DNA of 23,896 bases, the filler included, from an uncultured virus (IMG/VR IMGVR_UViG_2124908030_000002) (Duplodnaviria > Heunggongvirae > Uroviricota > Caudoviricetes > Thumleimavirales > Hafunaviridae). It is 4 parts of one record of this genome, joined end to end, with 100 filler letters (N's around TTAATTAATTAA, not from the genome) between each part and the next. Parts side by side here need not be neighbours in the genome. Positions count along the whole stretch, not along the records: positions 2,890 to 22,705 come from IMGVR_UViG_2124908030_000002; 3 more parts are not named here. One strand, written 5' to 3'. The position numbers and the translations under genes were made by a program. Positions 4,848-23,475 of the stretch are shown here, piece after piece. Numbering within the stretch: the first letter of the stretch is position 1; every line of letters begins with the position of its first letter. The notes under the pieces were generated by a model that had not been told where the DNA came from, searched no databases, and was given only the letters and a program-made list of their open reading frames with translations.

Positions 4848-5296
4848 GGCTCGTAGTGAAGCTCCCATACTCCGTGAGAGATTATCGCTTCCCCGTCTTG
4901 CTGGTCGGGGTCGATGTGTATCTCTGCTTCTCCGGCGTGGTACATCTCTTCTATCTCTATGACTATTCTTTCTACCGGGTCGGGTACTTCATCCCACTCG
5001 GTTATCTCTGGTAGCTCTACTTCTACATCGTCAGCAAGGATTAGACGACTATACTCAAACCGATAACTGCGCGTCTCTTCGCACTCTGCCCCGTATCCAT
5101 AGAACGTTTCGTCGTGCTTTTTCGAGTGGGTCGCTGACGTTACTTCAGCCCATCTACACTCTTCACGGAAGATTGCCGCTCCGTCTTCCATGATTGGGCT
5201 GTCTTCTGTTGGCCTCCACTCGTGGTCGTGAGTGTTTATCGGGTCGGGGTCTGGCGGGGAAGTCGGCGGCCCCGAGAATCCTCTACGTCCCATCAT
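4844..5296 (-). CDS. hypothetical protein (150 aa)
   Basis: Acidic ORF; its 5' part recurs at 6311-6476. Confidence 0.75.
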   Translation of the reverse strand: MMGRRGFSGPPTSPPDPDPINTHDHEWRPTEDSPIMEDGAAIFREECRWAEVTSATHSKKHDETFYGYGAECEETRSYRFEYSRLILADDVEVELPEITEWDEVPDPVERIVIEIEEMYHAGEAEIHIDPDQQDGEAIISHGVWELHYEP

Positions 5297-5510
5297 CTAT
5301 CACATCGACCGGAAGAACAGTCCCCCCGATAGTTGATTCCACACCAGTATCGTACTCGTACTGTACCTCGATGCTGCCGTTACGAGCTAGGTGAATGAAC
5401 CGAAGCTCTGTAACACTACCTTCTGTCCGGTCTGCGTCTTTGACGACGTGCCTTTCACCGTTGTTCAGTTGGCGCACTATCTTTTGTCTCCGTGGTTTTT
5501 TCTCGTTCAT
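5283..5510 (-). CDS. hypothetical protein (75 aa)
   Basis: ORF conserved in both copies of the block. Confidence 0.75.
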   Translation of the reverse strand: MNEKKPRRQKIVRQLNNGERHVVKDADRTEGSVTELRFIHLARNGSIEVQYEYDTGVESTIGGTVLPVDVIDDGT

Positions 5511-5920
5511 TTGATGTAATCCCGAAGGTTCTCAAGTCCCGCTTCTCCAAGCCCCGACACGTCCAGCAGCTCGTCGTCTTCGGCCTGCTGGATGTCGAGC
5601 TTCGTCTCGAAGCCGTTGCGATGAAGCTTGTACGCGGTCTTCTTACCCACGAACTTCACCTCTGACCACTCTTCCGTCTCGGCGTCTATCAGGTCGAGGT
5701 CGGAGTCGGGAAGATGCTCGAAGTAGCCGGCTTCTACCTGATTCTCGAAGGCTTCTCGCTGCTCTATCCGGTGGGCGTTGCCGGACTTGCGGCCCGTCGT
5801 GTCGCTTCGGAGCAACACAACTCCCTCGTAAGCGAAGAGAATCTGGTACATCTCTCCGCGAGCCTCGTGCTTGTAAATCTGTCCAACTGCGGGTTCAACT
5901 GTGGAGTCTAGCTCACTCAT
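5507..5920 (-). CDS. helix-hairpin-helix domain protein (137 aa)
   Basis: Tandem HhH-like motifs VKFVGKKTAYKL and LLDVSGLGEAGLENL; start set from copy 2 (MSELDS). Confidence 0.75.
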   Translation of the reverse strand: MSELDSTVEPAVGQIYKHEARGEMYQILFAYEGVVLLRSDTTGRKSGNAHRIEQREAFENQVEAGYFEHLPDSDLDLIDAETEEWSEVKFVGKKTAYKLHRNGFETKLDIQQAEDDELLDVSGLGEAGLENLRDYIK

Positions 5921-6194
5921 CTCGTACCTCGTCTGCTGTCTTCTTTCCATCAACCACGTCAGCAAGCGTTCCAAGATACTCAACGACAGCACGGTTCTCC
6001 GCTTCGTCCTGCTTGGTGTGCTTACGCATCTCTTCTGCCAGCTGACGGGCCTCGTATGCGGTGTAGACCGCAGTTTTCTCACCGATGTCAACTTCCACCA
6101 ACCGCTCGTTGTCGGTGATGCCCACGGTGAGCGACCCGACCTTCCCGGTGAGAATAGCTGTGCTAACCTCTTTCTGAAGCTCTGTCTCGTACAT
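5913..6194 (-). CDS. hypothetical protein (93 aa)
   Basis: Acidic ORF; first gene downstream of hammerhead A. Confidence 0.75.
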   Translation of the reverse strand: MYETELQKEVSTAILTGKVGSLTVGITDNERLVEVDIGEKTAVYTAYEARQLAEEMRKHTKQDEAENRAVVEYLGTLADVVDGKKTADEVRDE

Positions 6195-6221
6195 ACTGTC
6201 TTGCTCTTGTGATTCCCATTA

Positions 6222-6289
6222 AGTCATAGGCTCTTCAGGGGAAGGGCGACTAGCTCCCTCCCGAGGGGCGCGGCGCCCCTTTCGCCCGT
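6222..6289 (-). ncRNA. type II hammerhead ribozyme A
   Basis: GGGC-GAAA-GGGGCG(CCG)CGCCCC-UC^-GGGAGGG(AGCUAGUCGC)CCUUCCC-CUGAAGA-GCCU-AUGACU; complete core; predicted cut at 6263/6262. Confidence 0.92.
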
Positions 6290-6462
6290 NNNNNNNNNNN
6301 NNNNNNNNNGTGGCTGACGTTACTTCAGCCCATCTACACTCTTCACGGAAGATTGCCGCTCCGTCTTCCATGATTGGGCTGTCTTCTGTTGGCCTCCACT
6401 CGTGGTCGTGAGTGTTTATCGGGTCGGGGTCTGGCGGGGAAGTCGGCGGCCCCGAGAATCCT

Positions 6463-6690
6463 CTACGTCCCATCATCTATCACATCGACCGGAAGAACAG
6501 TCCCCCCGATAGTTGATTCCACACCAGTATCGTACTCGTACTGTACCTCGATGCTGCCGTTACGAGCTAGGTGAATGAACCGAAGCTCTGTAACACTACC
6601 TTCTGTCCGGTCTGCGTCTTTGACTACGTGCCGTTCACCGCTGTTCAGTTGGCGCACTATCTTTTGTCTCCGTGGTTTGTTCTCGTTCAT
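6463..6690 (-). CDS. hypothetical protein (variant of 5283-5510)
   Basis: Two amino-acid differences from copy 1. Confidence 0.75.
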   Translation of the reverse strand: MNENKPRRQKIVRQLNSGERHVVKDADRTEGSVTELRFIHLARNGSIEVQYEYDTGVESTIGGTVLPVDVIDDGT

Positions 6691-7100
6691 TTGATGTAAT
6701 CCCGAAGGTTCTCAAGTCCCGCTTCTCCAAGCCCCGACACGTCCAGCAGCTCGTCGTCTTCGGCCTGCTGGATGTCGAGCTTCGTCTCGAAGCCGTTGCG
6801 ATGAAGCTTGTACGCGGTCTTCTTACCCACGAACTTCACCTCTGACCACTCTTCCGTCTCGGCGTCTATCAGGTCGAGGTCGGAGTCGGGAAGATGCTCG
6901 AAGTAGCCGGCTTCCACCTGATTCTCGAAGGCTTCTCGCTGCTCTATCCGGTGGGCGTTGCCGGACTTGCGGCCCGTAGTGTCGCTTCGGAGCAACACAA
7001 CTCCCTCGTAAGCGAAGAGAATCTGGTACATCTCTCCGCGAGCCTCGTGCTTGTAAATCTGTCCAACTGCGGGTTCAACTGTGGAGTCTAGCTCACTCAT
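6687..7100 (-). CDS. helix-hairpin-helix domain protein (copy 2)
   Basis: Same protein as 5507-5920, synonymous SNPs only. Confidence 0.75.
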   Translation of the reverse strand: MSELDSTVEPAVGQIYKHEARGEMYQILFAYEGVVLLRSDTTGRKSGNAHRIEQREAFENQVEAGYFEHLPDSDLDLIDAETEEWSEVKFVGKKTAYKLHRNGFETKLDIQQAEDDELLDVSGLGEAGLENLRDYIK

Positions 7101-7423
7101 GAATCAAAGTCTACGTACTCTGCTTTGTCTGTGGTTATTTTGGTCCCCGTTTTTCGGACTTCGACTGTCTCTTCTACCTCTCGCGTCGAGAATGGCTTGA
7201 AGAAGACAGCAATAACTCCTTCATCTGTGAGCTTGTTTTCTGGCTGGACTGCTGAAATGAGGAACCCACACTCTAGAGCCTCTGCTCCGAGAGAGTGATG
7301 ATGGGGGAACCCATCTTCAGCAAACTCGATACAGCAACAAGTTCGGGTTCTAGTATCTTCTACCACAGTTCCGGACTGGTTCTCGAACGTATCTACCAGC
7401 TCGTAAAATTTTGATTTATTCAT
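7097..7423 (-). CDS. hypothetical protein (108 aa), present only in copy 2
   Basis: ORF overlaps both neighbours; more AT-rich codons. Confidence 0.75.
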   Translation of the reverse strand: MNKSKFYELVDTFENQSGTVVEDTRTRTCCCIEFAEDGFPHHHSLGAEALECGFLISAVQPENKLTDEGVIAVFFKPFSTREVEETVEVRKTGTKITTDKAEYVDFDS

Positions 7424-7535
7424 CTCTTACCTCGTCTGCTGTCTTCTTCCCATCAACCACGTCAGCAAGCGTTCCAAGATACTCAACGACAGCACGGTTC
7501 TCCGCTTCGTCCTGCTTGGTGTGCTTACGCATCTC
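7416..7535 (-). CDS. 3' part of the 93-aa protein (copy 2; 5' end in gap)
   Basis: EMRKHTKQ...EVRDE identical to 5913-6194. Confidence 0.75.
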   Translation of the reverse strand, partial: EMRKHTKQDEAENRAVVEYLGTLADVVDGKKTADEVRDE

Positions 7536-7555
7536 NNNNNNNNNNNNNNNNNNNN

Positions 7556-8289
7556 ACCTCGTCTTCGAGGTCCACATCCCCGACGTGACGGATGGTCTTC
7601 TTCTCGGTGATGCTCCTGATGGAGTTGTCACACCGGGTGTCCTGAGCGAAGCCCTCGAAGTACAGGGCTTGCGACCCGAAGAAGTCGTAGCCGGTCCTGA
7701 TACCGAGAACGAGCGGGTCGGTGCCGCTGTCGTCGTCGGTGTAGTCGATGTTGAAGGCATCGAAGAGGATGTCCATGTGGACTTCCCCGCCGCCCTTGTA
7801 CTGCCGAATCTCCCCGAACACATCGTCGCCGTAACCCTCGTCACGGATGGCCTCTTCGAGCGGTTCGTAGGCCGTCATGGGGTTGACGATGCTGTACGAC
7901 TTGCTCGGGACGTGCCAGAGCGCATCTTCGTTCGGAGTGTCGTCGGGGTTCAGCCACTCCCGAAGCTTGTCGGGGGAGTAGATGGACTGGAAGCGGTCAG
8001 TCTCAACGAAGACCGTCCGGTCGTTGACCCGGTGAAAGTCCACCCCGTCAGGTGCCCGGTTCCGAAGCGGCCCGTCGTTCAGGTTTTGGGCCACGTCTTC
8101 CGGCATCTTCCACGCGAGGCCGCCCTGCTCGGCCTGTTCTAACTCTCGAATCGCCGCTGCCATCGAGGTGTCGGGAGGGTTCTCGGCATCCATCCCGGCG
8201 ATGCTGGCCGCTGTGTCACCCATCTCGGTGTTGTTATGGGTGGTCAATCCTGCGAACTGCGTCGTCGTGTCGGCGGTGTTCTGGCGCAT
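7556..8289 (-). CDS. DUF932/DUF945-like phage protein (3' truncated by gap)
   Basis: PSKSYSIVNP, GYDFFGS and C-x-N...IRHVG pattern typical of the family. Confidence 0.6.
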
Positions 8290-8330
8290 GGTGTGTCTCG
8301 TTTTATATCATGGCGTCGAGGTGACGCTGA

Positions 8331-8371
8331 AAGGGCGGAGAGGAATCGAACCTCTCGGAACCACTCACCCT
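8331..8371 (-). ncRNA. mini-tRNA (t-element) 1
   Basis: AGGGUG-AGUGGUUCC-GAGAGG(UUCGAUU)CCUCUC-CGCCCU: 6-bp acceptor plus 6-bp T-stem with canonical T-loop; no D or anticodon arm. Confidence 0.8.
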
Positions 8372-8391
8372 AACATTCAAAGCCCTACGCC

Positions 8392-8619
8392 TTAAGTCTT
8401 TTCAGTATCAATCTCTTCGGGCAGAGGTATGATACCTCGCTCGTCGTAGTAGTCTAGGACTTTCAGAAGGTCTTCTTTGAAACGGTCTGATATGTACCCC
8501 TTGCCTAGTGCGTTGGAGAACGAACTTGCTGCTCGCCCGGAGCAGACAGAGAGGTTAGACTGTTTTATCCCTCGTTCCATTCTCATCTCGTCAATTTCTT
8601 CGATTGACTTGTCAGTCAT
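8392..8619 (-). CDS. XRE-like helix-turn-helix protein
   Basis: MRMERGIKQSNLSVCSGRAASSFSNALGKG fits an XRE/Cro HTH pattern. Confidence 0.65.
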   Translation of the reverse strand: MTDKSIEEIDEMRMERGIKQSNLSVCSGRAASSFSNALGKGYISDRFKEDLLKVLDYYDERGIIPLPEEIDTEKT

Positions 8620-9171
8620 CAGAGCGGAGGTACTTCTCTACCTCGGCGTCGTTCAGGGTTTGCTGGCCTCCGTCCGTCGCTGCCAGACGCTCACCCTGAT
8701 GGCTACCGTCGTAGTCATCGGCTACGTCAGCACTCTCGAAGACCATCTGTGCTATCGGATACCGTTCGGGGAACCGGACAGGGTTGACTGCCGAAGGAAC
8801 CCGGAGTAGCCCTTCGCCGTAGCCCTCGTAGCCTTGGTCCCACAGGGCAGAAGTAAGGTGGAGGCCGCACCGCATCAGTCGGGACCGGGGGTAGACCCTG
8901 CCGACGTACCCTTCGGGAATCTCTATCTTCTCGGCGTAGACGATGGGGTACGGCCCTTGAGGGAGCCGGTAGAAGCCGGTGTCTTTCGGCACAACCCTCG
9001 TTCTGTCCGGCTTCGAGTAGCCAAACTCCGTGAACCGGGCTGTCCTGACGACCGGAAGACTTCTCCAATTGTCAGGTCCACACCGTTCGGCTGAATCTGC
9101 TCTTCAGGGATGTCTCCGTCGTTCAGATGCTCTGCTACTAGACTGCCGGATGCTACTGCGTTGTCACTCAT
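8612..9171 (-). CDS. dcd: dCTP deaminase / trimeric dUTPase family protein (1-nt frameshift near 9040)
   Basis: QIQPNGVDLTI in one frame; PRSRLMRCGL, WDQGYEG and PIAQMVF in another; adding one base at GGACAG^CCC joins them. Confidence 0.9.
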
Positions 9172-9182
9172 TTTTGTGAATC

Positions 9183-9605
9183 CTACTGCGCGTTTATCCA
9201 GTCACTATACGTCGGGAACTTGTCTTCAAACCGCTCCTGATACGACTCGTTCAGGGCATGAATCTCGTCCAGTTCGTCACTCGACCAGCGGCCCGATTCG
9301 AGGGCCGGCCCTCGGTGGTGGAGGTGAGGCCACCCTGTCACGATGACTCGGTGTCCGTCTTCGTGGAAGCCGGCAACAAGGTAGTAGGCAACCCCCTTGC
9401 CCCATACCTTCCGGAAGCAAGCACACCCATCTCCGTTGTCACGGAGGTCGCCGTGATTGATGGTTTCCCTGATAACTTCCGGGGTCAGGTATCGCTCCGG
9501 TTCCTTCATCCGCTGAATGAAGTGTCGGAGTGGTGTGTAGAGTTGCGGCTGTTGTGGGTAATCGATGTCTCGGTACTCCCGGCTCCGGTCGATGGGAAGG
9601 TTCAT
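9183..9605 (-). CDS. DUF4258-like protein
   Basis: HFIQRMKE..RYLTPEVIRETINHG and HRVIVTGW. Confidence 0.55.
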   Translation of the reverse strand: MNLPIDRSREYRDIDYPQQPQLYTPLRHFIQRMKEPERYLTPEVIRETINHGDLRDNGDGCACFRKVWGKGVAYYLVAGFHEDGHRVIVTGWPHLHHRGPALESGRWSSDELDEIHALNESYQERFEDKFPTYSDWINAQ

Positions 9606-9614
9606 GGCATCATC

Positions 9615-9878
9615 TTAGTCCTGCGAGATGACCGTCGCTCCGGGGTCGAACATGGCTCGTCCGATGAGGAACTGCGCGACCTTATAGCCGTCAACTTCTC
9701 CGGGGGAGAAGTAAACGAGAGAGTCAACGCTCTTGACTGTCCCGTCGTCGTACTCAATCCTCGCAACTTCCGGCGTCTCCTTCAGCTCCGTGTTCGGATT
9801 GTTTGAAGGAGAAGTCGTGTCGATGTGGACCGTAGACCGGGTGTCGTACCACATCGAGAGGTGACTGACTTCAGCCAT
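9615..9878 (-). CDS. hypothetical protein (87 aa)
   Basis: Acidic ORF with TGATG overlap. Confidence 0.7.
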   Translation of the reverse strand: MAEVSHLSMWYDTRSTVHIDTTSPSNNPNTELKETPEVARIEYDDGTVKSVDSLVYFSPGEVDGYKVAQFLIGRAMFDPGATVISQD

Positions 9879-10390
9879 CAGTTGGCACCTCCCACATAAT
9901 GGGAAACTGAACTTTGGGCAATCCCAAGGACGTTACTAATCTCGGTCTGAGGTAGGTCTTCGTTGTGGTAAAGTTCCATCATCAATAGCTCGTCGGTGAA
10001 GGTCGTTTTCTTTTGATGGTGCGCCCGGTGTTCACCCTCTCCCATCAGCTTGATGTTCGAGGGGCGGTTGTCCCACGGAAGCTCGTTCTGGTGGTGAACA
10101 TCTTTGCCCACTACTGCGTCGAACCCAAACTCACAGACCGCAAGAAGCCTGTGGTGGAAAAAATGGCTGCCGTCAACGTTGAACATCTCGTACCCATCAC
10201 TACTGACATGAAGGGACGGGTGGCCGTACTGGTTGCGAGCAGCTTCCTTCGGACTGCGGGTTTCGACCCCTGCGTCAGCCATCCACCGGGCAACGGTCTT
10301 GCTGACCACATCGCATTTTTCACCGATTTCTGCTTGTGTCATCCCTTCGTCATGGTACAGCCGACGAAGCTCCGACTCTTCAAGAGGCAT
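9878..10390 (-). CDS. HNH homing-type endonuclease with flanking HTH motifs
   Basis: HHRLLA...DVHHQNELPWDNRPSNI...EHRAHH; HTH-like segments at both ends (MTQAEIGEKCDV; LPQTEISNVLGIAQSSVS). Confidence 0.88.
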   Translation of the reverse strand: MPLEESELRRLYHDEGMTQAEIGEKCDVVSKTVARWMADAGVETRSPKEAARNQYGHPSLHVSSDGYEMFNVDGSHFFHHRLLAVCEFGFDAVVGKDVHHQNELPWDNRPSNIKLMGEGEHRAHHQKKTTFTDELLMMELYHNEDLPQTEISNVLGIAQSSVSHYVGGAN

Positions 10391-10521
10391 TACTCTTCAC
10401 CCCCCTGTCGCCAACTCACCGCTGAGTAGAATCTACCCATTATAGCACCGAGGTCGTCAGTTTCGTATGTTTGGCGCAACGTCTCAACGTGTCCGTCATC
10501 GCTAAATTCTACTGATTCCAT
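10390..10521 (-). CDS. hypothetical protein (43 aa)
   Basis: MESVEFSDDG...; TAATG overlap with the HNH gene; first ATG after hammerhead B. Confidence 0.6.
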   Translation of the reverse strand: MESVEFSDDGHVETLRQTYETDDLGAIMGRFYSAVSWRQGGEE

Positions 10522-10538
10522 GATGTCTTTGGTCTGAA

Positions 10539-10606
10539 CGGTCTGGCTCGTCAGGGAGATGGCGACCAGCACACCTCCGACGAGGGGCGACCCCTCGTTT
10601 CGCCGT
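10539..10606 (-). ncRNA. type II hammerhead ribozyme B
   Basis: GGC-GAAA-CGAGGGG(UCG)CCCCUCG-UC^-GGAGGUG(UGCUGGUCGC)CAUCUCC-CUGACGA-GCC-AGACCG; predicted cut at 10579/10578. Confidence 0.92.
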
Positions 10607-10631
10607 TGACTTGAAGCTCGGGCTTTGAGTC

Positions 10632-11546
10632 CTAGTCCTGAATCTCAGCCTCGATACTGTCGCGGTTCTCACCGATAACCCGGCGCGTCTCCTGAGCTAT
10701 CGGGGCAGAGTTGGCTGCGTCCTCGATGTCTTCTCGTAGGTAGAAGAACTCCTGAATGGCTTCTACGGCTTCGTCACCAGCGAGGGCCGGGGCGGAGACA
10801 CCATGCTCGTCAGCCACCGTCGAGATGGCTGAGAGGACGGTGCTACCGTCGCTGAACAGGGTCCAGACACGCTGAAGAACATCGGGGGAGACACGGGACA
10901 GAGCATCGAAGTCGTCACCGTGGAACACATCTGCTGCGATGTAGGGGAAGAAGTCCATCAGCATGGCCAGCTCGTTCACTCCGCAGTGACAATAGGGGCA
11001 GAAGTCCATCTGGTCGGCGAAGGCATCGGTCACGTCGAAGCCGGCTCGGATGTCGTGCTTGTGGTCAGGGTGGGAGTGACCGAGGCCGCACTCTTCAACC
11101 GGACACTCGAACCGGGAGACTCGGGTGTCGCTGACAACGGAACGAGCATCCTGAAGCACGTCCATCACGTCGTCGTCAATCTCCGAGTCGATGTCACCCA
11201 TGACCCCATCGATGGAGTCCACGAGGTTCTGGCTGTTCTCGGACTGAAGCGCGCTGTGGCTGCCGAGCGTCCACATCGAACCCACGGTGTCGAAGCTGTT
11301 GGTGTCGTCCTGTGCGTCGTCGTCGGCGGCGATGAAGTCGTAGTTCATGTTGGTGGTGTCGTCGTCGCTGTCTTCCGCACTGTTCTCGTCGTGTCTCGTT
11401 CTGAAGACTGTTTCTGAAAGGTAATGTCGCTCCTCGATGGAGTAGGCCACGTTGTTTGACCGAAGGGCGGCGGCCACCTCTTTGTGGTCAAACACGTCAA
11501 TCAACTCACCAGTATGCCGGTTAACTACCTTGTATTCCGTTGGCAT
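10632..11546 (-). CDS. acidic Cys/His-rich hypothetical protein (304 aa)
   Basis: CPVEECGLGHSHPDHKH and CPYCHC clusters. Confidence 0.8.
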   Translation of the reverse strand: MPTEYKVVNRHTGELIDVFDHKEVAAALRSNNVAYSIEERHYLSETVFRTRHDENSAEDSDDDTTNMNYDFIAADDDAQDDTNSFDTVGSMWTLGSHSALQSENSQNLVDSIDGVMGDIDSEIDDDVMDVLQDARSVVSDTRVSRFECPVEECGLGHSHPDHKHDIRAGFDVTDAFADQMDFCPYCHCGVNELAMLMDFFPYIAADVFHGDDFDALSRVSPDVLQRVWTLFSDGSTVLSAISTVADEHGVSAPALAGDEAVEAIQEFFYLREDIEDAANSAPIAQETRRVIGENRDSIEAEIQD

Positions 11547-11592
11547 GGGTTGTGTCCCGTCACTTGTATCGTTGCGCCACGGGGGGCGCTGA

Positions 11593-11634
11593 TGGCTAGG
11601 AGAGGAATCGAACCCCTCGCTGCCCTGTCTAGCT
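11593..11634 (-). ncRNA. mini-tRNA (t-element) 2
   Basis: AGCUAG-ACAGGGCAGC-GAGGGG(UUCGAUU)CCUCUC-CUAGCC-A; acceptor stem covaries relative to element 1. Confidence 0.8.
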
Positions 11635-11662
11635 AAAGACTAGAGGCCGAGTCACTTAAGTC

Positions 11663-11902
11663 TTATTTATTACGCCGGAGCTTAATCCGTTCCGGAATAT
11701 CTTTCTCGACTTTTTTCGGCTTTACTACGACGTGCCAACCTCCAATTAGAAGGCGTTGTCTTTCTCCGCCCTGCCACTCAAGCCCGTCGTTTTGGAACAG
11801 GTGTTCACCGGCCCGCTTCGCTTGTTCTTTGGTCGCAAAGATGTGATTATAACGTACTCTGTGCTTTCCGTCTTCTTTGTAGGTAAGTTCCCAAAGTTCC
11901 AT
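11663..11902 (-). CDS. hypothetical basic protein (79 aa)
   Basis: MELWELTYKE...; ATG 2 nt after the upstream stop. Confidence 0.7.
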   Translation of the reverse strand: MELWELTYKEDGKHRVRYNHIFATKEQAKRAGEHLFQNDGLEWQGGERQRLLIGGWHVVVKPKKVEKDIPERIKLRRNK

Positions 11903-11904
11903 GT

Positions 11905-12594
11905 TTAGCTCCTGTCCGGGGTGTTCTCGACAAGCCAGACGGCCTTGCCGATGAACTTCATCTCCTTGTTGGTGAGCCGGTAGCTCTCTCCGTTTGTGGT
12001 AATGTCTCTGTCCATGTCTTCGGTCAGGGTGGCGGCCCGAAGGCCGTAGGCTTGAACCGAAGACCCCTCGGCGACGACGCCGTTGCCTTGTCGCTTCCGG
12101 CTGTCGGTACTCGGGTGGTAGATTTCTGCCTCGAACGTCAGCAGAACGTGACCGTTGATGAGCCACCCGTCGTCTCTGACTTCGACCCGCTCCGATAAGG
12201 CCTCGGCGAAGATGTCCAGCACATCTCCACGGACCATGCCGGCTCTGATGTCGTCGTAGAGGGTGACGAGCGCCTTCACGGTGTCACCATCATGTTCCTC
12301 GTACATCTTTGCCATAGCTTCCACCAAGTCCGTCTTGTGGTGTTCCCCGAGGGTCAGGTCGGGGCAGTCTTCAAGCCGGAGAGTGTAGCACTCCGACTCC
12401 GGGTCGGGGATGATGGTAACGTCTTTCTCCCCGTCAACGCTCTTCATCCATATCTCGTCGCCGTATTCCAGAAGCCCGAACAGGTCGTGACCGTAGAGCA
12501 GCTGGTTCAGGTCCGAACACTTTGTCTTCGTCTCGGTTCCACCGTCAGGTGTGGCTATGAGCCACGAGGTCGGTGTCTCGTCTATTACGTTCAT
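11905..12594 (-). CDS. hypothetical protein (229 aa)
   Basis: Acidic ORF starting MNVIDET with ATGA overlap. Confidence 0.8.
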   Translation of the reverse strand: MNVIDETPTSWLIATPDGGTETKTKCSDLNQLLYGHDLFGLLEYGDEIWMKSVDGEKDVTIIPDPESECYTLRLEDCPDLTLGEHHKTDLVEAMAKMYEEHDGDTVKALVTLYDDIRAGMVRGDVLDIFAEALSERVEVRDDGWLINGHVLLTFEAEIYHPSTDSRKRQGNGVVAEGSSVQAYGLRAATLTEDMDRDITTNGESYRLTNKEMKFIGKAVWLVENTPDRS

Positions 12595-12782
12595 CGTGTT
12601 ACTGACTTGTCGTTGAGGTCGCGCTTCTTCCAGTTTCCACCGCACTTCTGGCAGTTATACGTCTTCTTCCGTTCGTGTCTGTAGACCTGACTGTCGCACT
12701 CCGGGCAAGTGAACCGCCACGGCTCGTCGGGGTCAGGCTTGCTGTCGAAGGCCGTCCGGGTGATTTCTTTAGAGGAAGTCAC
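12591..12782 (-). CDS. small zinc-ribbon protein (CPxCG-like)
   Basis: CPECDS...YNCQKCGG. Confidence 0.8.
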   Translation of the reverse strand: MTSSKEITRTAFDSKPDPDEPWRFTCPECDSQVYRHERKKTYNCQKCGGNWKKRDLNDKSVTR

Positions 12783-15573
12783 GACACTCCTCCTTTGTCA
12801 GCTCTGATGGGTCGATGCCTTTCTCGTGGAAGCCGAGAAGCATCTGGCCTGTCCATGTATCTCGGCGGTGGTTATCATCGAACAAATCGTACACGTCGCT
12901 GTCGTCATCCCAATTTGGGGTGTCAGCCATCAGCCGGTAGCGTTTCGAGCTGCCTTCCAGATGACCATCTTTGAGCGACGGCTTGTGGTTGGGACTGTAG
13001 CGAGTCAACCGTGCGATGATGATGCTTGCCTGATGTATCCTTGACCCCACACCGTCCGTCTTGATGTTCTTGAAGGCCCACCGCGCTCTTTTCAGCACTT
13101 TGTCACAGACAACAGCGAAGAGGGTGTCGTGCTTGTCGTCGTCGGGAACGTTGCCTTTGTCGTCGCTACGGTAGCCGCCGTCGTAGTCATCGAGTAGTTT
13201 GGCCCACTCAATCTGGTCACGGAAGTCTTCGGCGTAGAAGTTCCGGAGCTTTTCAAAGTCATCTCCGAGCAGCTTCACTACTTCGCGGTCATCACTCGGC
13301 CGGTGAGCCATAACCACCATCCGGTCGTCGTCGTACAGCTCTTCAGGAGTCATGGCACCGTCTTCTGTGGCTATTAGTGCTGACGAGGACCACTCGGTGT
13401 ATTCCATGTAAGTGACTACATCATCATAGTCTTCAAGCTCGGACAGTTGAGACTTTGTGACGCAGACAATAGCGGCGTAGTATGCCATGTCGTAGTGGTC
13501 GCTGATGTTCGGGCCGTCGCCCTGAGTGAAGACCATCAACGTGTCTTTGCCGTGGAAGTTGCCGTGCCCTTCCAGCTTTCGCTTCACCTCTTTCATGGTG
13601 AGCCGCTGGTCGATGGAGCTACTATCGGAGCTGGTGCGGAGCTTCAGCTTGTCCGGGTCTTTCTTCTTCGTTGTCTTCGTGTGCTTCTGGTGGATGTCGT
13701 TCGGAACATCCCAACTGTGGTCGTCGTCCTGCTTGACAGGAACGTTCTTCACGACGTTGAAACCGAAGGCATCACCCCAAGCATCGTACTTGCTGGCACC
13801 GTTGATTTTGATTACCTCTGCGTCAGGGTTGTTGTGGCGAAGGACTTTGAAGCGGTCGGTGAAGTTACCGCCTGTCGAAGCTGCCATGTAGACGTTATCG
13901 CAGTCTTCTATGTCTGTCAGGAACGCCCCTAGTCTCTTACTCTTCCGGTTCCGACTGCTGCTAGACCGACCGGGGCCGTTGTAGCAGTACTCAATTTCTG
14001 AGAACAGAGCGTACATCTGGTTCAGAGTATCGTCAGATGTTACGTCGAAGTGGTCGTCGCCTGAGATGAAGTTACGGAACTTCCTTCGTTTTTCTGTCGC
14101 CTTGTACGGGCCGTGCTTTGACACCATCTTCGAGAAGATTTTCCACGAGCTTCTGTCACCGATAAGGGCGCTGCCGGGGTGACTGCCCGACTTCATCTCT
14201 TCTACGACAGCCCGGAGCTGTTTCTTCTCTTCTTCGATGGCCAACGACTGAACGTACTCGAAGAACTGTTTCTGCTCGGAGTCTTTCTTCAGGCTGTCAC
14301 GGGAGCCGGTAGGCTGCGGGAGCATCACGTCGTCGTCGTGTAGCTCCCCGATGACGTTGTTTTTCTCGTTCGTCTCGAAGAGTCGCTGTCCGTCAGAGTA
14401 CCGGCCCCGGTTCGGCCCGTGAACAATCCGGCCTTGTTCGTCCTGAATCTGAATCACTTCGTCCCACAGGGTGCTGAACCGGACTGATGTGTTCCGGTCA
14501 ATAGCCATCGACACCATGAAGGTGTCTTCGTCGTCGGCATGGTAGCCGGTGTCAATAACATCAGGACCGGAGACGAGGGAAAACTCACCGGGACGCTCAA
14601 CCACAATCGGTGGGTCGCCGTACTCTTCAACGAAGTTGCTGGCCTCGTACTCTTCTTCGACCGGGGTGGTCCCGGCGTCGTGTTCTCGGTAGAGAAGCGG
14701 GACACGAAGTTGCTCGGTGTAGTCTTCGACCCATGACTGAAGCTTCGAGAGACTGAACGAATCTTGAACCGGCATCGAGAACCGGGTGCCGTAGAAGTTT
14801 TCTTCTACCTCACCACAGAGTGCGTTAGCACCACCGAGGTAGGAGTAAGCCCGGAAGCCGGGGTGGTCGCCGGGCTGCCGGCTTCGGGTGTCAATTTCTG
14901 CTCCGGCTCCATGCTTGCCGTGAACTAGGGCCGACGACTCTGAACCGATACCGAACATCCCACCGGAGCCGCCGTCAACACCGGAGCCGGACTGGAAGAT
15001 GGTGTTGAAGGCGTCGTCAAACTGTGCCGGGGTCATGCCGATGCCGTTGTCTTCGGTGACTATCTTCCGCTCATCGAGGTACACATCCCACACTATCGTC
15101 GGGTCGTAACCGAGGTTCCGTGAAGCTTCAAGGACTTCATCGATGGGCCGGGGAATCTCTATCCGGCGGAAGTCTGACGGGTCGCTGTCGCCATCATCGA
15201 GCGCGTTCTCGGCGACAGTCTCCCCGGTTTCAGCATCGACCAGAAGGCTCTGTGTGAGCCACCCGTCGTCGTACCGTTCGGAGAGCTGAATCAGGAGCTT
15301 CGAGGCTCGGAAGCAGGCAGCTTCCTCGTTCTGAAGCCACTCTCGAACCCATGCCGAGTCATGCTCGTAGATGAAGTCAGACAGGAACTCTCCGGCACCG
15401 CTCTCTGTCTGTGTCTTCAGGGCTTCGTCACCCGTCTCTTGAACGAGAGGGTGGTCTTCGCCAGCCACACCGAGCTGCTTCACGTCGTTGGTGTCGGGGC
15501 CTGAAAGGACAGGGGGAACGGAAGGGTCACGGCTCTGTTCGTCGGTCGTCGGAAGGTCGATGTTCTCACTCAT
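12769..15573 (-). CDS. GHKL (Hsp90/MutL-type) ATPase-domain protein, rIIA-like architecture
   Basis: Bergerat-fold motifs REWLQN, EDNGIGM, GGMFGIG and GTRF in the N-terminal third, followed by a long unassigned C-terminal region. Confidence 0.85.
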   Translation of the reverse strand: MSENIDLPTTDEQSRDPSVPPVLSGPDTNDVKQLGVAGEDHPLVQETGDEALKTQTESGAGEFLSDFIYEHDSAWVREWLQNEEAACFRASKLLIQLSERYDDGWLTQSLLVDAETGETVAENALDDGDSDPSDFRRIEIPRPIDEVLEASRNLGYDPTIVWDVYLDERKIVTEDNGIGMTPAQFDDAFNTIFQSGSGVDGGSGGMFGIGSESSALVHGKHGAGAEIDTRSRQPGDHPGFRAYSYLGGANALCGEVEENFYGTRFSMPVQDSFSLSKLQSWVEDYTEQLRVPLLYREHDAGTTPVEEEYEASNFVEEYGDPPIVVERPGEFSLVSGPDVIDTGYHADDEDTFMVSMAIDRNTSVRFSTLWDEVIQIQDEQGRIVHGPNRGRYSDGQRLFETNEKNNVIGELHDDDVMLPQPTGSRDSLKKDSEQKQFFEYVQSLAIEEEKKQLRAVVEEMKSGSHPGSALIGDRSSWKIFSKMVSKHGPYKATEKRRKFRNFISGDDHFDVTSDDTLNQMYALFSEIEYCYNGPGRSSSSRNRKSKRLGAFLTDIEDCDNVYMAASTGGNFTDRFKVLRHNNPDAEVIKINGASKYDAWGDAFGFNVVKNVPVKQDDDHSWDVPNDIHQKHTKTTKKKDPDKLKLRTSSDSSSIDQRLTMKEVKRKLEGHGNFHGKDTLMVFTQGDGPNISDHYDMAYYAAIVCVTKSQLSELEDYDDVVTYMEYTEWSSSALIATEDGAMTPEELYDDDRMVVMAHRPSDDREVVKLLGDDFEKLRNFYAEDFRDQIEWAKLLDDYDGGYRSDDKGNVPDDDKHDTLFAVVCDKVLKRARWAFKNIKTDGVGSRIHQASIIIARLTRYSPNHKPSLKDGHLEGSSKRYRLMADTPNWDDDSDVYDLFDDNHRRDTWTGQMLLGFHEKGIDPSELTKEECRDFL

Positions 15574-15713
15574 CTGAGGTCAACAAGGTCGGTTGTTTTC
15601 ATGTCGCTGCTGATGAAGGCTCTCGGGTTGCCTTCTTCCTGAACGCTGTATCTGCTCGAATACTCACTCCACGTTACTTGTGGGGACAGCTCTGGTGGGT
15701 TCTCTTCGTTCAT
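15570..15713 (-). CDS. hypothetical protein (47 aa)
   Basis: MNEENPPELSPQVTWSEY...; ATGA overlaps at both ends; conserved in copy 2. Confidence 0.7.
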   Translation of the reverse strand: MNEENPPELSPQVTWSEYSSRYSVQEEGNPRAFISSDMKTTDLVDLR

Positions 15714-16232
15714 ATTCCGTAGTCTATCGCCGGGTTGTCTTCTATACACCGTCTTGTGNNNNNNNNNNNNNNNNNNNNNNNNNNNNNNNNNNNNNNNNNN
15801 NNNNNNNNNNNNNNNNNNNNNNNNNNNNNNNNNNNNNNNNNNNNNNNNNNNNNNNNNNNNNNNNNNNNNNNNNNNNNNNNNNNNNNNNNNNNNNNNNNNN
15901 NNNNNNNNNNNNNNNNNNNNNNNNNNNNNNNNNNNNNNNNNNNNNNNNNNNNNNNNNNNNNNNNNNNNNNNNNNNNNNNNNNNNNNNNNNNNNNNNNNNN
16001 NNNNNNNNNNNNNNNNNNNNNNNNNNNNNNNNNNNNNNNNNNNNNNNNNNNNNNNNNNNNNNNNNNNNNNNNNNNNNNNNNNNNNNNNNNNNNNNNNNNN
16101 NNNNNNNNNNNNNNNNNNNNNNNNNNNNNNNNNNNNNNNNNNNNNNNNNNNNNNNNNNNNNNNNNNNNNNNNNNNNNNNNNNNNNNNNNNNNNNNNNNNN
16201 NNNNNNNNNNNNNNNNNNNNNNNNNNNNNNNN

Positions 16233-16903
16233 CCCGGAGCCATGCTTGCCGTGAACGAGGGCTGCGACTCTGAGCAGACACCGAACATCCCACCGGAGCC
16301 ACCGTCAACACCGGAGCCAGAGCTGAAGATGGTGTTGAAGGCTTCGTCAAACTCACGAGGAGTCATGCCGATGCCGTTGTCTTCGGTGACTATCTTCCGC
16401 TCATCGAGGTACACATCCCACACTATCGTCGGGTCGTAACCGAGGTTTCGTGAGGCTTCGAGGACTTCATCGATGGGCCGGGGAATCTCTATCTGGCGGA
16501 AGTCTGACGGGTCGCTGTCGCCATCATCGAGCGCGTTCTCGGCGACAGTCTCCCCGGTTTCAGCATCGACCAGAAGGCTCTGTGTGAGCCACCCGTCGTC
16601 GTACCTCTCGGAGAGCTGAATCAGGAGCTTCGAGGCTCGGAAGCAAGCAGATTCCTCGTTCTGAAGCCACTCTCGAACCCATGCCGAGTCATGCTCGTAG
16701 ATGAAGTCAGCCAGAAACTCTCCGGCACCGCTCTCTGTCTGAGTCTTCAGGGCTTCGTCACCCGTCTCTTGAACGAGGGGGTGGTCTTCGCCAGCCACAC
16801 CGAGCTGCTTCACGTCGTTGGTGTCGGGGCCTGAAAGGACTGGGGGAGCGGAATGGTCACGGCTCTGTTCGTCGGTCGTCGGAAGGTCGATGTTCTCACT
16901 CAT
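16233..16903 (-). CDS. GHKL ATPase protein, second variant (3' part in gap)
   Basis: Near-identical to 14903-15573 (offset 1330), with synonymous and a few non-synonymous changes. Confidence 0.85.
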
Positions 16904-17040
16904 CTGAGGTCAACAAGGTCGGTTGTTTTCATGTCGCTGCTGATGAAGGCTCTCGGGTTGCCTTCCTCCTGAACGCTGTATCTGCTCGAATACTCACTCC
17001 ACGTTACTTGTGGGGACAACTCTGGGGTTTCTTCTGTCAT
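16900..17040 (-). CDS. hypothetical protein (46 aa; variant of 15570-15713)
   Basis: MTEETPELSPQVTWSEY...; its ATG lies in the 3' tail of hammerhead C. Confidence 0.7.
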   Translation of the reverse strand: MTEETPELSPQVTWSEYSSRYSVQEEGNPRAFISSDMKTTDLVDLR

Positions 17041-17097
17041 GCTCATCAGGGAAGGGACGACACTCCCTCCCGACAGGGCCGGTCCCTGTTTCGCCAT
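17035..17097 (-). ncRNA. type II hammerhead ribozyme C
   Basis: AUGGC-GAAA-CAGGG(ACCGG)CCCUG-UC^-GGGAGGGA(GUGUCG)UCCCUUCC-CUGAUGA-GC-AUGACA; predicted cut at 17072/17071. Confidence 0.92.
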
Positions 17098-17181
17098 TTA
17101 GGGACTTTTCCCCATTATGACATACTTTTCTTCGTTTTCTTCCATCACTTCCTTTGAAAGTCTAAGAAATCTCTTGTTCAT
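17098..17181 (-). CDS. putative 27-aa peptide
   Basis: MNKRFLRLSKEVMEENEEKYVIMGKSP*; TGATG overlap upstream; stop directly abuts hammerhead C. Confidence 0.45.
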   Translation of the reverse strand: MNKRFLRLSKEVMEENEEKYVIMGKSP

Positions 17182-17690
17182 CAAATCCCTAACGCTGAAG
17201 CCTGCTCTTCTTCATCTACGACCCACTCTTCATCTTCCACATCGAGAACCCGGCCAGTCTCGAAGACAACTTCAGTCTCGTCTCGGACTTCGGTGATGCC
17301 GTAGATGCTTTCTTCTTCACCTTTGATGTAGGTCTTAAGTGAAGTAACATCAAGACTTTCATCACAACTCGGAGTGGTACACTTTGCCCGGCCTTTGGCG
17401 TAGCAACTGGTGTCGTTGATAAGAAGCCCCGACCTCGTTCTGATGGCCTCGATGTGACGGTAGTGCTTCAGCTTCCCTCTGCCATCAGGGTACTGAAGCC
17501 CGACGAGGTTCTTCGTTGAGGTGTAGAGCTTCACCGCATCCCCTGAAGTTGAGTGAGTTGGAAGGGCACCGTCTCCCCATTTCCGAGCAACTTCAGGTTG
17601 GTTCCCTGTTGCGCTGCTTACTTCATGATACACATCTGCCGGGTACTCTTCACCGTTCTCTGCTTGAATCGTACTTTGTTGTAGACTCAT
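17181..17690 (-). CDS. hypothetical protein (169 aa)
   Basis: Acidic ORF preceded by GGAGG. Confidence 0.8.
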   Translation of the reverse strand: MSLQQSTIQAENGEEYPADVYHEVSSATGNQPEVARKWGDGALPTHSTSGDAVKLYTSTKNLVGLQYPDGRGKLKHYRHIEAIRTRSGLLINDTSCYAKGRAKCTTPSCDESLDVTSLKTYIKGEEESIYGITEVRDETEVVFETGRVLDVEDEEWVVDEEEQASALGI

Positions 17691-22705: not shown

Positions 22706-22749
22706 NNNNNNNNNNNNNNNNNNNNNNNNNNNNNNNNNNNNNNNNNNNN

Positions 22750-22761
22750 TTAATTAATTAA
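22750..22761. other. artificial contig linker TTAATTAATTAA
   Basis: Six-frame stop linker flanked by N runs. Confidence 0.97.
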
Positions 22762-22805
22762 NNNNNNNNNNNNNNNNNNNNNNNNNNNNNNNNNNNNNNN
22801 NNNNN

Positions 22806-23475
22806 GCCCGTTGTCACCGTCCCATTTTTGCCCTTCTTACCACAGGCAAGGTCCGAAGACCAGCCGTGTACCGAAGGGCTACCATTTCCTTCGGGGTCCG
22901 AAACACCCCGAAGAGACATCGTGCGAGGGCCGAAAGCCCCCAAAGGCCCCCCACACCCCACAAAAGGGGGAGGGGACCAACCCCCCACACCTCACGACGC
23001 TGCGCCGCGTGTGTGCGAGATTGATGCCGACCGCGAGCGAGCCTGTTTAGACAGTATCCCCGGAACCATATAAACTCGTCGCTATCAGCAACTTGTCTGA
23101 GACTGCCGATTTGCCGGGGTAGGAGGCCAGATACGCCGATATAGTGGTTTTGCCGGAGTTGATAAGTGAGAGTAATAAACCGGCAACAAATGTAGCTACC
23201 CATAGCAAATCAGGACCCAAATCTCTAATCGTCGGTGACAGGACCAGTACCGACCGATTACAGCATCTGAGAGTCAATTCCTTTATACCGTGGTATCTCC
23301 GATTTTCCGGCGGTTGGTAATGTCTCTCACACCGGGTAAATCGGGGGGTCCTTCGCGCGCAGGAATCCCTTCGCTTCAAAGAAATTCCCGCGCGCGAAGG
23401 GGTTCCCCCCTTCTAATGCTGATACCGGGAAGGGCGGGGTGATTCAACCCCTTTAGAAGTGACTAGCCCTTCGTA
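22806..23475 (+). ncRNA. candidate large structured non-coding RNA or structured DNA region, part 2
   Basis: No credible ORF; dense nested inverted repeats. Confidence 0.4.

Follow-up and report, generated by a model that had tools for sequence, protein, structure and literature searches.

Why should a tailed virus carry three predicted self-cleaving ribozymes along a single run of genes? The question is raised by a stretch of DNA of 23,896 nucleotides, filler included (hereafter the window), from the uncultured Hafunaviridae virus IMGVR_UViG_2124908030_000002, on the minus strand of which lie three motifs, A, B and C, with the form of type II hammerheads. A extends over 6216..6289 (core and helices 6228-6287), B over 10533..10607 (core and helices 10545-10604) and C over 17029..17098 (core and helices 17041-17094). 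All three were identified by reading the sequence, by a structural descriptor and by a covariance model, R1; Rfam passes C and leaves B below its cut-off. It is highly likely that they are genuine type II hammerhead self-cleaving ribozymes, situated in intergenic spacers of an uncultured haloarchaeal tailed virus, where they would divide the transcript of an operon. Natural type II hammerheads were described by Perreault et al. 2011 (PMC3088659), according to whom loop I forms a pseudoknot with the 3' tail of stem II in most of them, activity is lost when this pseudoknot is disrupted and rescued by compensation, and the pseudoknot is needed for fast cleavage.

Architecture of the Three Hammerheads

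Read on the minus strand, A, B and C present their elements in the same order: an open strand of stem II, GAAA, a capped stem III, C17, a capped stem I, CUGANGA and the second strand of stem II. This is the connectivity of type II, with hairpins on stems I and III and stem II left open, and the lengths of stems II, III and I are 4, 7 and 7 base pairs (bp) in A, 3, 8 and 7 in B, and 2, 6 and 8 in C. In A, stem II is formed by GGGC (6287-6284) with GCCU (6231-6228), 4 bp including one G.U, followed by GAAA (6283-6280), the stem III hairpin (6280-6264), C17 at 6263, stem I (6262-6256 with 6245-6239) and CUGAAGA (6238-6232). B has GGC (10604-10602) paired with GCC (10547-10545), GAAA at 10601-10598, C17 at 10579 and CUGACGA at 10554-10548; the corresponding elements of C are GC (17094-17093) with GC (17042-17041), GAAA at 17092-17089, C17 at 17072 and CUGAUGA at 17049-17043. 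All 11 conserved core positions are intact in each copy, including the A15.1-U16.1 pair that closes stem III and C17 (H17, not G), and the cleavage triplets are CUC in A and GUC in B and C. The predicted cuts fall at 6263/6262, 10579/10578 and 17072/17071.

A sequence-only reading of this DNA had proposed three type II hammerheads with an intact core (N being A, C and U, with GAAA and an NUC triplet), cuts at these same positions, and a short, open-ended stem II of 2-4 bp. All of this is borne out by the minus-strand reading: the cuts are correctly placed, each directly after C17, and stem II has 4, 3 and 2 bp. The same reading held that stems I and III differ in sequence while remaining paired; the pairing stands, and the difference is restricted to A and C versus B, because A and C share almost the same stem I. 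A pseudoknot of 4-5 bp between loop I and the tail can be drawn in each copy as it had been proposed, with AGUCG (6251-6247) facing UGACU (6226-6222) in A, UGGUC (10568-10564) facing GACCG (10543-10539) in B and UGUCG (17062-17058) facing UGACA (17039-17035) in C, but the compensatory change said to accompany it is limited, among the three copies, to a single pair. An AUG (17040-17038) is situated in the tail of C, and the 5' side of A adjoins a 20-N assembly gap at 6290-6309. All three hammerheads are intergenic and on the same strand as the surrounding open reading frames (ORFs).

How specific are these matches? The descriptor, which asks for the core and three helices, finds exactly A, B and C on both strands of the window; across 200 mononucleotide shuffles the mean was 0.01 matches, with any match in only 2. 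R1 was built from the hammerheads of 10 relatives, none of them from the window, and was run with its filters off. It scores A at 75.1, B at 52.4 and C at 51.2 bits (E 2e-18 to 5e-12) and aligns each over its full length (positions 1-75 of 75). The fourth best of the 44 R1 matches listed in the window reaches only 12.0 bits, so the count is taken as three; no fourth hammerhead was found with R1, and the best score at a site upstream of a gene of 188 amino acids (aa), discussed below, was 5.8 bits. In Rfam, C scores 38.4 bits with RF02276 (Hammerhead_II), above the gathering cut-off of 37, and a search of the whole window at a permissive E-value gives a Hammerhead_II match at C only. A blastn comparison of hammerhead A with phage records returned four partial matches at E = 2, which is noise.

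Covariation in the Family

The strongest indication that these structures have been maintained comes from relatives. In an alignment of 16 family members made with R1, to which the pseudoknot was added by hand, standard pairs occupy 94.1% of 340 cells, versus 76.0 +/- 1.3% in shuffles (none of 500 reaches the observed value) and 46-53% in controls in which the partner strand was slid. Thirteen of the 22 pairs change on both sides, and stem I is paired in 99.1% of cells, with 6 of its 7 pairs compensatory. Nested stems are favoured by the fitting of the model; the pseudoknot is not part of it. Its first four pairs, P1-P4, are formed in 61 of 63 cells. P2 and P4 are invariant, while P1 is AU in five sequences, GC in five, GU in three and CG in one, the other two cells being unpaired and a gap (the gap, in window C, is an artefact of the alignment, the real pair there being U-A), and P3 is CG in seven, UA in seven and AU in one, with one unpaired cell. 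Of the 31 cells of P1 and P3 together, 29 are paired, compared with a mean of 19.7 when tails are dealt among the sequences, a level of pairing that none of 10,000 deals attains.

As judged from sequence, this supports the view that the motifs are hammerheads under selection. The earlier argument, that covariation among three paralogues of one scaffold indicates selection, thus reaches its conclusion by another route, through the 16-member covariation and the syntenic sites described below; among the three window copies alone, covariation is thin and does not discriminate.

Conserved Sites in Related Viruses

Related contigs were gathered by a pattern scan of viral contigs and by a search with a three-protein alignment, which did find relatives, whereas a single-protein search with the 934-aa HSP90/GHKL-like protein of the window found none. 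Their hammerheads were scored with a relaxed descriptor and R1. The contig G001 is 72.7 kilobases (kb) long, has terminal repeats and is collinear with the window, at 49-73% amino-acid identity; G005, G006 and G007 are 71-72 kb, with HSP90-like proteins 48-53% identical to that of the window, and G008 and G009 are more distant (35-37%). Two hammerheads are found in G001, four in G005, two in G006 (one with A9 changed to C, the other with a long insertion in stem III) and three in G007; G008 has one weak copy with a damaged core, at 30.5 bits. None was found in G009 or in the 22-kb syntenic part of HSTV-2 with the relaxed descriptor and R1, and the best Rfam match in the entire HSTV-2 record has E = 0.18.

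When the window proteins are mapped onto these contigs, hammerheads appear at the window's syntenic sites in five related uncultured viruses (the copy in G008 being damaged). Site A, upstream of a 93-aa gene, is occupied in the window, G005 and G007, and perhaps in G006. Site B, between a 304-aa and a 43-aa gene, is occupied in the window, G001, G005, G006 and G007, and site C, upstream of the HSP90-like gene, in the window, G005 and G007, and in damaged form in G008. A further site, D, upstream of the 188-aa gene, has a hammerhead in G001 and G005. In sequence, window B is closest to the site-B copy of G001 (77%) and window C to the site-C copy of G007 (81%). The best matches to window A are a site-C copy (74%) and window C (71%), suggesting that hammerheads have been copied from one site to another.

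The core is not uniform among relatives. At the site orthologous to B, G006 has CUGAUGC, with A9 changed to C (L241 4925-4988), and G007 has CAUGAAGA, with an extra A after C3 and the pseudoknot kept (L244 17654-17726; 24.6 bits with R1); at the site orthologous to C, G008 has CGGAAGA, with U4 changed to G (L246 15810-15903). In eight copies from G005-G007, A9 and stem II are separated by an additional U. When prokaryote genomes were scanned for this last form, at least 120 matches were obtained, and the 80 listed records are all bacterial, which shows that the form is common in bacteria and that the scan gives no host information.

A loop-based DNA pattern scan of viral contigs returned at least 120 stretches; among the 80 loci examined there were four true hammerheads, in two loci, none of them from a halovirus. 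(A separate case is G003, an unrelated 38-kb viral contig with nine Rfam Hammerhead_II matches on one strand within 4.6 kb, L087 1017-5627. Four of the nine are above the Rfam cut-off, the descriptor finds eight, and the array is much denser than that of the window.)

The Virus and Its Probable Haloarchaeal Host

The window represents a tailed virus of haloarchaea, as a scaffold that has gaps and is duplicated in part. Its minus strand carries about 35 co-directional ORFs in a run of roughly 20 kb, from about 23.8 kb down to about 3.2 kb, and its plus strand encodes a small terminase subunit and a portal protein, which mark it as a tailed virus. Compared with 50,697 phage records, the 934-aa HSP90/GHKL-like protein matches viruses of Halorubrum, Haloarcula and Halogranum only, the best isolates being HCTV-6, HSTV-2 and HRTV-7 (up to 37% amino-acid identity). 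The nearest isolates of the window virus are HSTV-2-like Hafunaviridae, the HSTV-2 record itself being classed in the genus Mincapvirus of that family. The predicted proteins are acidic, with a median isoelectric point (pI) of 4.59 (n=31; 24 of the 31 below 5) and 19.6% D+E versus 10.5% K+R, and the stretch is contained in four DNA runs of a single study, labelled hypersaline lake metagenome. Taken together, the protein relatives, the acidic pI and the lake label make a haloarchaeal host, with molar intracellular salt, very probable. The high-salt setting that had been presumed for these hammerheads is thereby supported.

Cleavage, Switching or Relics?

What would the hammerheads do? On the favoured reading, which draws on analogy with hammerheads tested elsewhere, each motif would fold into a three-way junction on a long transcript, stems I and II would be docked by the 4-5 bp pseudoknot that loop I forms with the tail 3' of stem II, and the RNA would cut itself after C17 at the three predicted positions. 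The upstream piece would end in a 2',3'-cyclic phosphate, and the downstream piece would start at a 5'-OH, next to which the stem I hairpin and the pseudoknot would serve as a structured leader. The transcript would in this way be separated into a block (i) of the genes upstream of C, a block (ii) from a small ORF and the HSP90-like gene through the 304-aa gene, a block (iii) with the 43-aa ORF, an HNH endonuclease gene, a dCTP-deaminase-like gene and a phrog_13083 gene, and a block (iv) from the 93-aa gene onwards. Blocks so separated could differ in stability or translation. Most likely, on this analysis of the motifs and their positions, the hammerheads break up a long viral transcript and so yield shorter messages. 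What is observed directly is the motifs, with their statistics, fixed sites and covariation, whereas co-transcription of the genes, cleavage in vivo and effects on expression are inferred.

A number of observations weigh against it. Cleavage by the window copies is a prediction, and a single transcript for the operon genes is an assumption. With Rfam RF02276, B reaches 32.5 bits, below the cut-off of 37, and is reported only when a stretch of 106 bases is searched, while A gives no match either in the whole window at a permissive E-value or in a narrow search. Fold-energy z-scores versus shuffles are not significant (-1.0 for A, -1.6 for B and -0.9 for C). The minimum-energy fold of A is the hammerhead three-way junction, but B has an alternative nested fold at -32.2 kcal/mol, 7 kcal/mol more stable than the nested hammerhead at -25.2 (the pseudoknot not being counted), and C has an alternative 1.1 kcal/mol more stable than its nested hammerhead. 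The fifth pair of the pseudoknot, P5, is formed in only 9 of the 16 family members, and in the three window copies taken alone, cognate loops and tails pair at 5, 4 and 4 of 5 positions versus 3 to 5 for non-cognate combinations. Ten of the 16 rows of the alignment had trained the model that aligned them, and the covariation counts are not independent events, because the rows are related. Lastly, the scaffold is gapped and has duplicated blocks, so the order of genes around A and C is partly uncertain.

The alternative fold of B, in which the 3' strand of stem III pairs with the core, leads to the thought that the hammerheads might be conditional switches, whose cleavage responds to intracellular Mg2+ or K+ or to a competing fold and so tunes a downstream block (that of the HSP90-like gene, for instance) with host salt or stage of infection. 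The core variants at site B in relatives, A9 to C in G006 and the extra A after C3 in G007, point the same way; in addition, control by salt was proposed for the halovirus variants by Perreault et al. 2011 (PMC3088659), who reported strong Mg2+ dependence for the HHmeta hammerhead. On the other hand, the cores in the window are fully canonical, and such cores are fast at low Mg2+ in the examples published in that paper. No ligand- or protein-binding extension is visible in the window copies, and stem III, by forming first during transcription, would presumably favour the active fold. Switching is an unlikely alternative to constitutive processing.

Distinctly doubtful is a more elaborate proposal, in which an uncultured clade of roughly 72-kb haloarchaeal tailed viruses has in common a conserved map of four sites, those of the window among them, where ribozymes process the early operon, the 5'-OH leader of stem I and pseudoknot gates translation downstream, and the site-B variants (A9 to C, and the extra A after C3) are active only through molar salt. 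At site C, the start codon of the small ORF would then lie inside the pseudoknot tail, and the small ORF would be translationally coupled to the HSP90-like gene.

Could the motifs instead be inactive relics, or elements kept for structure only, such as GC-rich hairpins that stabilise transcript ends, terminate transcription or bind proteins, with the core retained by descent? The ribozyme activity of the window copies is, after all, predicted from sequence, their fold z-scores are not significant, and in relatives there are core changes expected to cripple catalysis (A9 to C in G006 and CGGAAGA in G008). However, each window copy keeps 11 of 11 core positions while its stems change with compensation, the pseudoknot, which is relevant only to the active fold, covaries, and the same sites persist across viruses that share only about 50% protein identity. 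Relics or purely structural elements therefore have little chance of being the right explanation.

The products of hammerhead cleavage, with their 5'-OH and 2',3'-cyclic phosphate ends, are substrates of RtcB-type ligases. It is nevertheless highly improbable that gene-carrying fragments between two hammerheads are joined by such a ligase into circular or spliced viral RNAs, for although HF2 has an annotated RtcB gene and the four-hammerhead relative G005 encodes an RtcB-like RNA ligase 44% identical to it over 462 aa (contig 32582-33940; L254 37516-38880), an RtcB homologue was looked for and not found in the window (a partial genome), G001, G006, G007, G008 or G009, the fragments would be 4-6 kb, and no such products were found when they were looked for with clustered hammerheads, as reported by Perreault et al. 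2011 (PMC3088659). Self-cleavage that divides the operon transcript is thus the reading retained here.

Genes around the Sites

The genes on either side are all on the minus strand. Upstream of C is a 169-aa gene of unknown function (17181..17690), separated from it by an AT-rich spacer of 86 bases; the G005 homologue lies directly upstream of the site-C hammerhead of that virus. Just upstream of C, at 17095-17192, 93 AT-rich bases are bounded by a 7-base inverted repeat (UUAGGGA ... UCCCUAA), and a sub-threshold match to a C/D-box snoRNA falls in the same spacer (29.4 bits versus a cut-off of 38, E 1.4). Downstream of C, a small ORF of 46 aa (16900..17040) starts at the AUG in the tail of C, and its stop overlaps the start of a copy of the HSP90-like gene at 16903 (ATGA). 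No homologue of this ORF was found in the relatives at E 1e-4. A second, diverged copy is present at 15570-15713, and no hammerhead was found upstream of it in the 46 bases left (to 15758) before the N gap. A tail AUG as a general feature was considered and rejected: AUGACU occurs in several tails, but early stops follow in A, G007, G005 and G006.

The large gene downstream of site C (12769..15573) encodes the 934-aa HSP90/GHKL-ATPase-like protein, which matches phrog_23723 at E 1e-178 and HATPase_c_3 weakly, and is 37% identical to the products of the "HSP90 chaperone" genes of HCTV-6 and HSTV-2. Upstream of B is the 304-aa gene (10632..11546; phrog_30610, function unknown), and downstream of it the 43-aa ORF (10390..10521, from an ATG at 10521). 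In G001, G005, G006 and G007, homologues of the former lie directly upstream, and of the latter after, the site-B hammerhead. The 43-aa ORF is followed by the HNH endonuclease gene (9878-10390), with two helix-turn-helix regions. No HNH match was found at this position in G001, G005 and G007, and homologues lie elsewhere in G006 and G008; the gene may be a mobile insertion. The dCTP-deaminase-like gene (8612-9171) is made up of two overlapping ORFs in different frames, 8923-9171 corresponding to the N-terminal and 8612-8992 to the C-terminal part of Pfam DCD, and reflects either a frameshift or a sequencing error.

Downstream of A is the 93-aa gene of unknown function (5913..6194), whose G005 homologue is found just downstream of the site-A hammerhead. 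The bases after the tail of A, 6194-6221 (UAAUGGGAAUC), resemble those after the site-A hammerhead of G007, L231 1440-1500 (UAAUGGGAACC), and the short ORFs opened there differ; the likeness may be that of a conserved non-coding word or of plain shared descent. Farther away, upstream of the first gene of the minus-strand array, a nearly perfect GC-rich hairpin of about 68 bases at 23343-23410 was found only through a chance-level microRNA match (25.7 bits, E 0.98).

State of the Scaffold

Gaps of 20 N at 6290-6309 and 7536-7555 and one of 474 N at 15759-16232 interrupt the window. Different from these gaps are three identical-looking masks, at 1112-1211, 2790-2889 and 22706-22805, each of two 44-N runs with 12 readable bases between; at the second of them, the window lacks about 45 kb that the complete relative G001 has between the portal gene and the operon end. 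Positions 5130-5429 are the same as 6310-6609, 5917-6032 resembles 7420-7535, and 14935-15234 resembles 16265-16564 at 94%. One metagenome contig joins 15758 directly to 17035, and one replaces 17095-17187 by six bases; each of these joints is seen in a single contig, with 30 letters on the shorter side and 90% likeness. The contigs come from four runs of a single study, and the source of the window itself may be among them, so they do not count as independent support.

With that proviso, these single contigs weakly suggest that the duplicated blocks, 5130-7555 and 14935-17034, are co-assembled strain variants rather than true tandem duplications. If the joint of 15758 to 17035 is real, the block 15759-17034 would be such a variant, and C would also precede the second small-ORF copy, in frame with the AUG in its tail. 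The spacer 17095-17192 may be an insertion or deletion element, because one contig lacks exactly 17095-17187. Below 7556, contigs of two runs continue unlike the window, as loose ends and weakly so, which fits a truncated phrog_13083 gene continuing there and suggests a misplacement of block 6310-7535 in the scaffold.

Comparison with Known Systems

How much of this is new? The kind of ribozyme, the pseudoknot, the clusters in operons, the occurrence in haloviruses and the tests in KCl and Mg2+ are already in Perreault et al. 2011 (PMC3088659). That paper describes hammerheads from saltern viral fractions and from the haloviruses HF1 and HF2, kinetics in up to 3 M KCl and at high Mg2+, an HF2 transcript whose 5' end maps within 3 nucleotides of the HF2 hammerhead cut site, and one saltern sequence with the typical consensus; a 2020 paper on HF1-like viruses also mentions a conserved hammerhead. 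A full-text literature search found no description of multi-site hammerheads in the HSTV-2-related lineage, a search that did not extend to Dataset S1 of PMC3088659, which may list these or near-identical saltern sequences. The modest novelty is that a halovirus has canonical cores, that its genome carries three copies, that a map of four sites is conserved in an uncultured clade and that natural core variants occur at one orthologous site.

With Rfam RF02276 and the type II hammerheads of PMC3088659, the window copies share the topology (capped stems I and III with an open stem II of 2-4 bp), the core (CUGANGA, GAAA, NUH), the loop I/tail pseudoknot of at least 4 bp and the intergenic position in operons of tailed viruses. 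They differ from RF02276 in the word of the pseudoknot, which in the window lineage is X-G-N-C-G with Y-G-N-C-Y (GUC/GAC, GCC/GGC, GAC/GUC) and in the Rfam consensus UGG/CCA, in that A and B fall below or outside the Rfam threshold, and in the archaeal host. For annotation, this means that the Rfam threshold misses two of what are very likely three true copies in the window.

A close parallel is the HHphage hammerhead of HF1 and HF2, also of type II and also in the early operon of a Hafunaviridae virus of haloarchaea. The HF2 record, AF222060.2, annotates the ncRNA HrrHF2_135 at 10292-10359 as "predicted hammerhead ribozyme (type II) by RFAM"; R1 gives it a weak 23.3 bits, and its loop I/tail pairing, GGUC/GACC, is that of window B. 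HHphage and HHmeta (the latter from saltern viromes), however, have a 2-nucleotide insertion beside C3 and need very high Mg2+, according to PMC3088659, whereas the window cores are canonical and without insertion. HF2, moreover, has one annotated copy, upstream of a Rad3-like helicase gene, and the window virus has three, at other genes. In the literature found, the small set from archaeal viruses was made up of saltern virome fragments and the HF1/HF2 core variant; predicted type II hammerheads with canonical cores, three per genome at conserved sites, are now added to it. Knowledge of how hammerheads work is unchanged by the finding, but the site-B series (canonical, A9 to C, insertion next to C3) could be used to test whether molar salt relaxes the requirements of the core, a question left open in 2011.

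Gene-flanking clusters of hammerheads in prophages are the other obvious comparison, and triple arrangements of this kind cut in vitro and in E. coli (PMC3088659). Like those of Clostridium scindens, Azorhizobium caulinodans and Agrobacterium tumefaciens (Figure 3 of the same paper), the window has several hammerheads on one strand, which there divide a phage operon into single genes or short blocks. The spacing in the window is wider, with blocks of 4-6.5 kb, the host is archaeal rather than bacterial, and the sites are conserved across a viral lineage.

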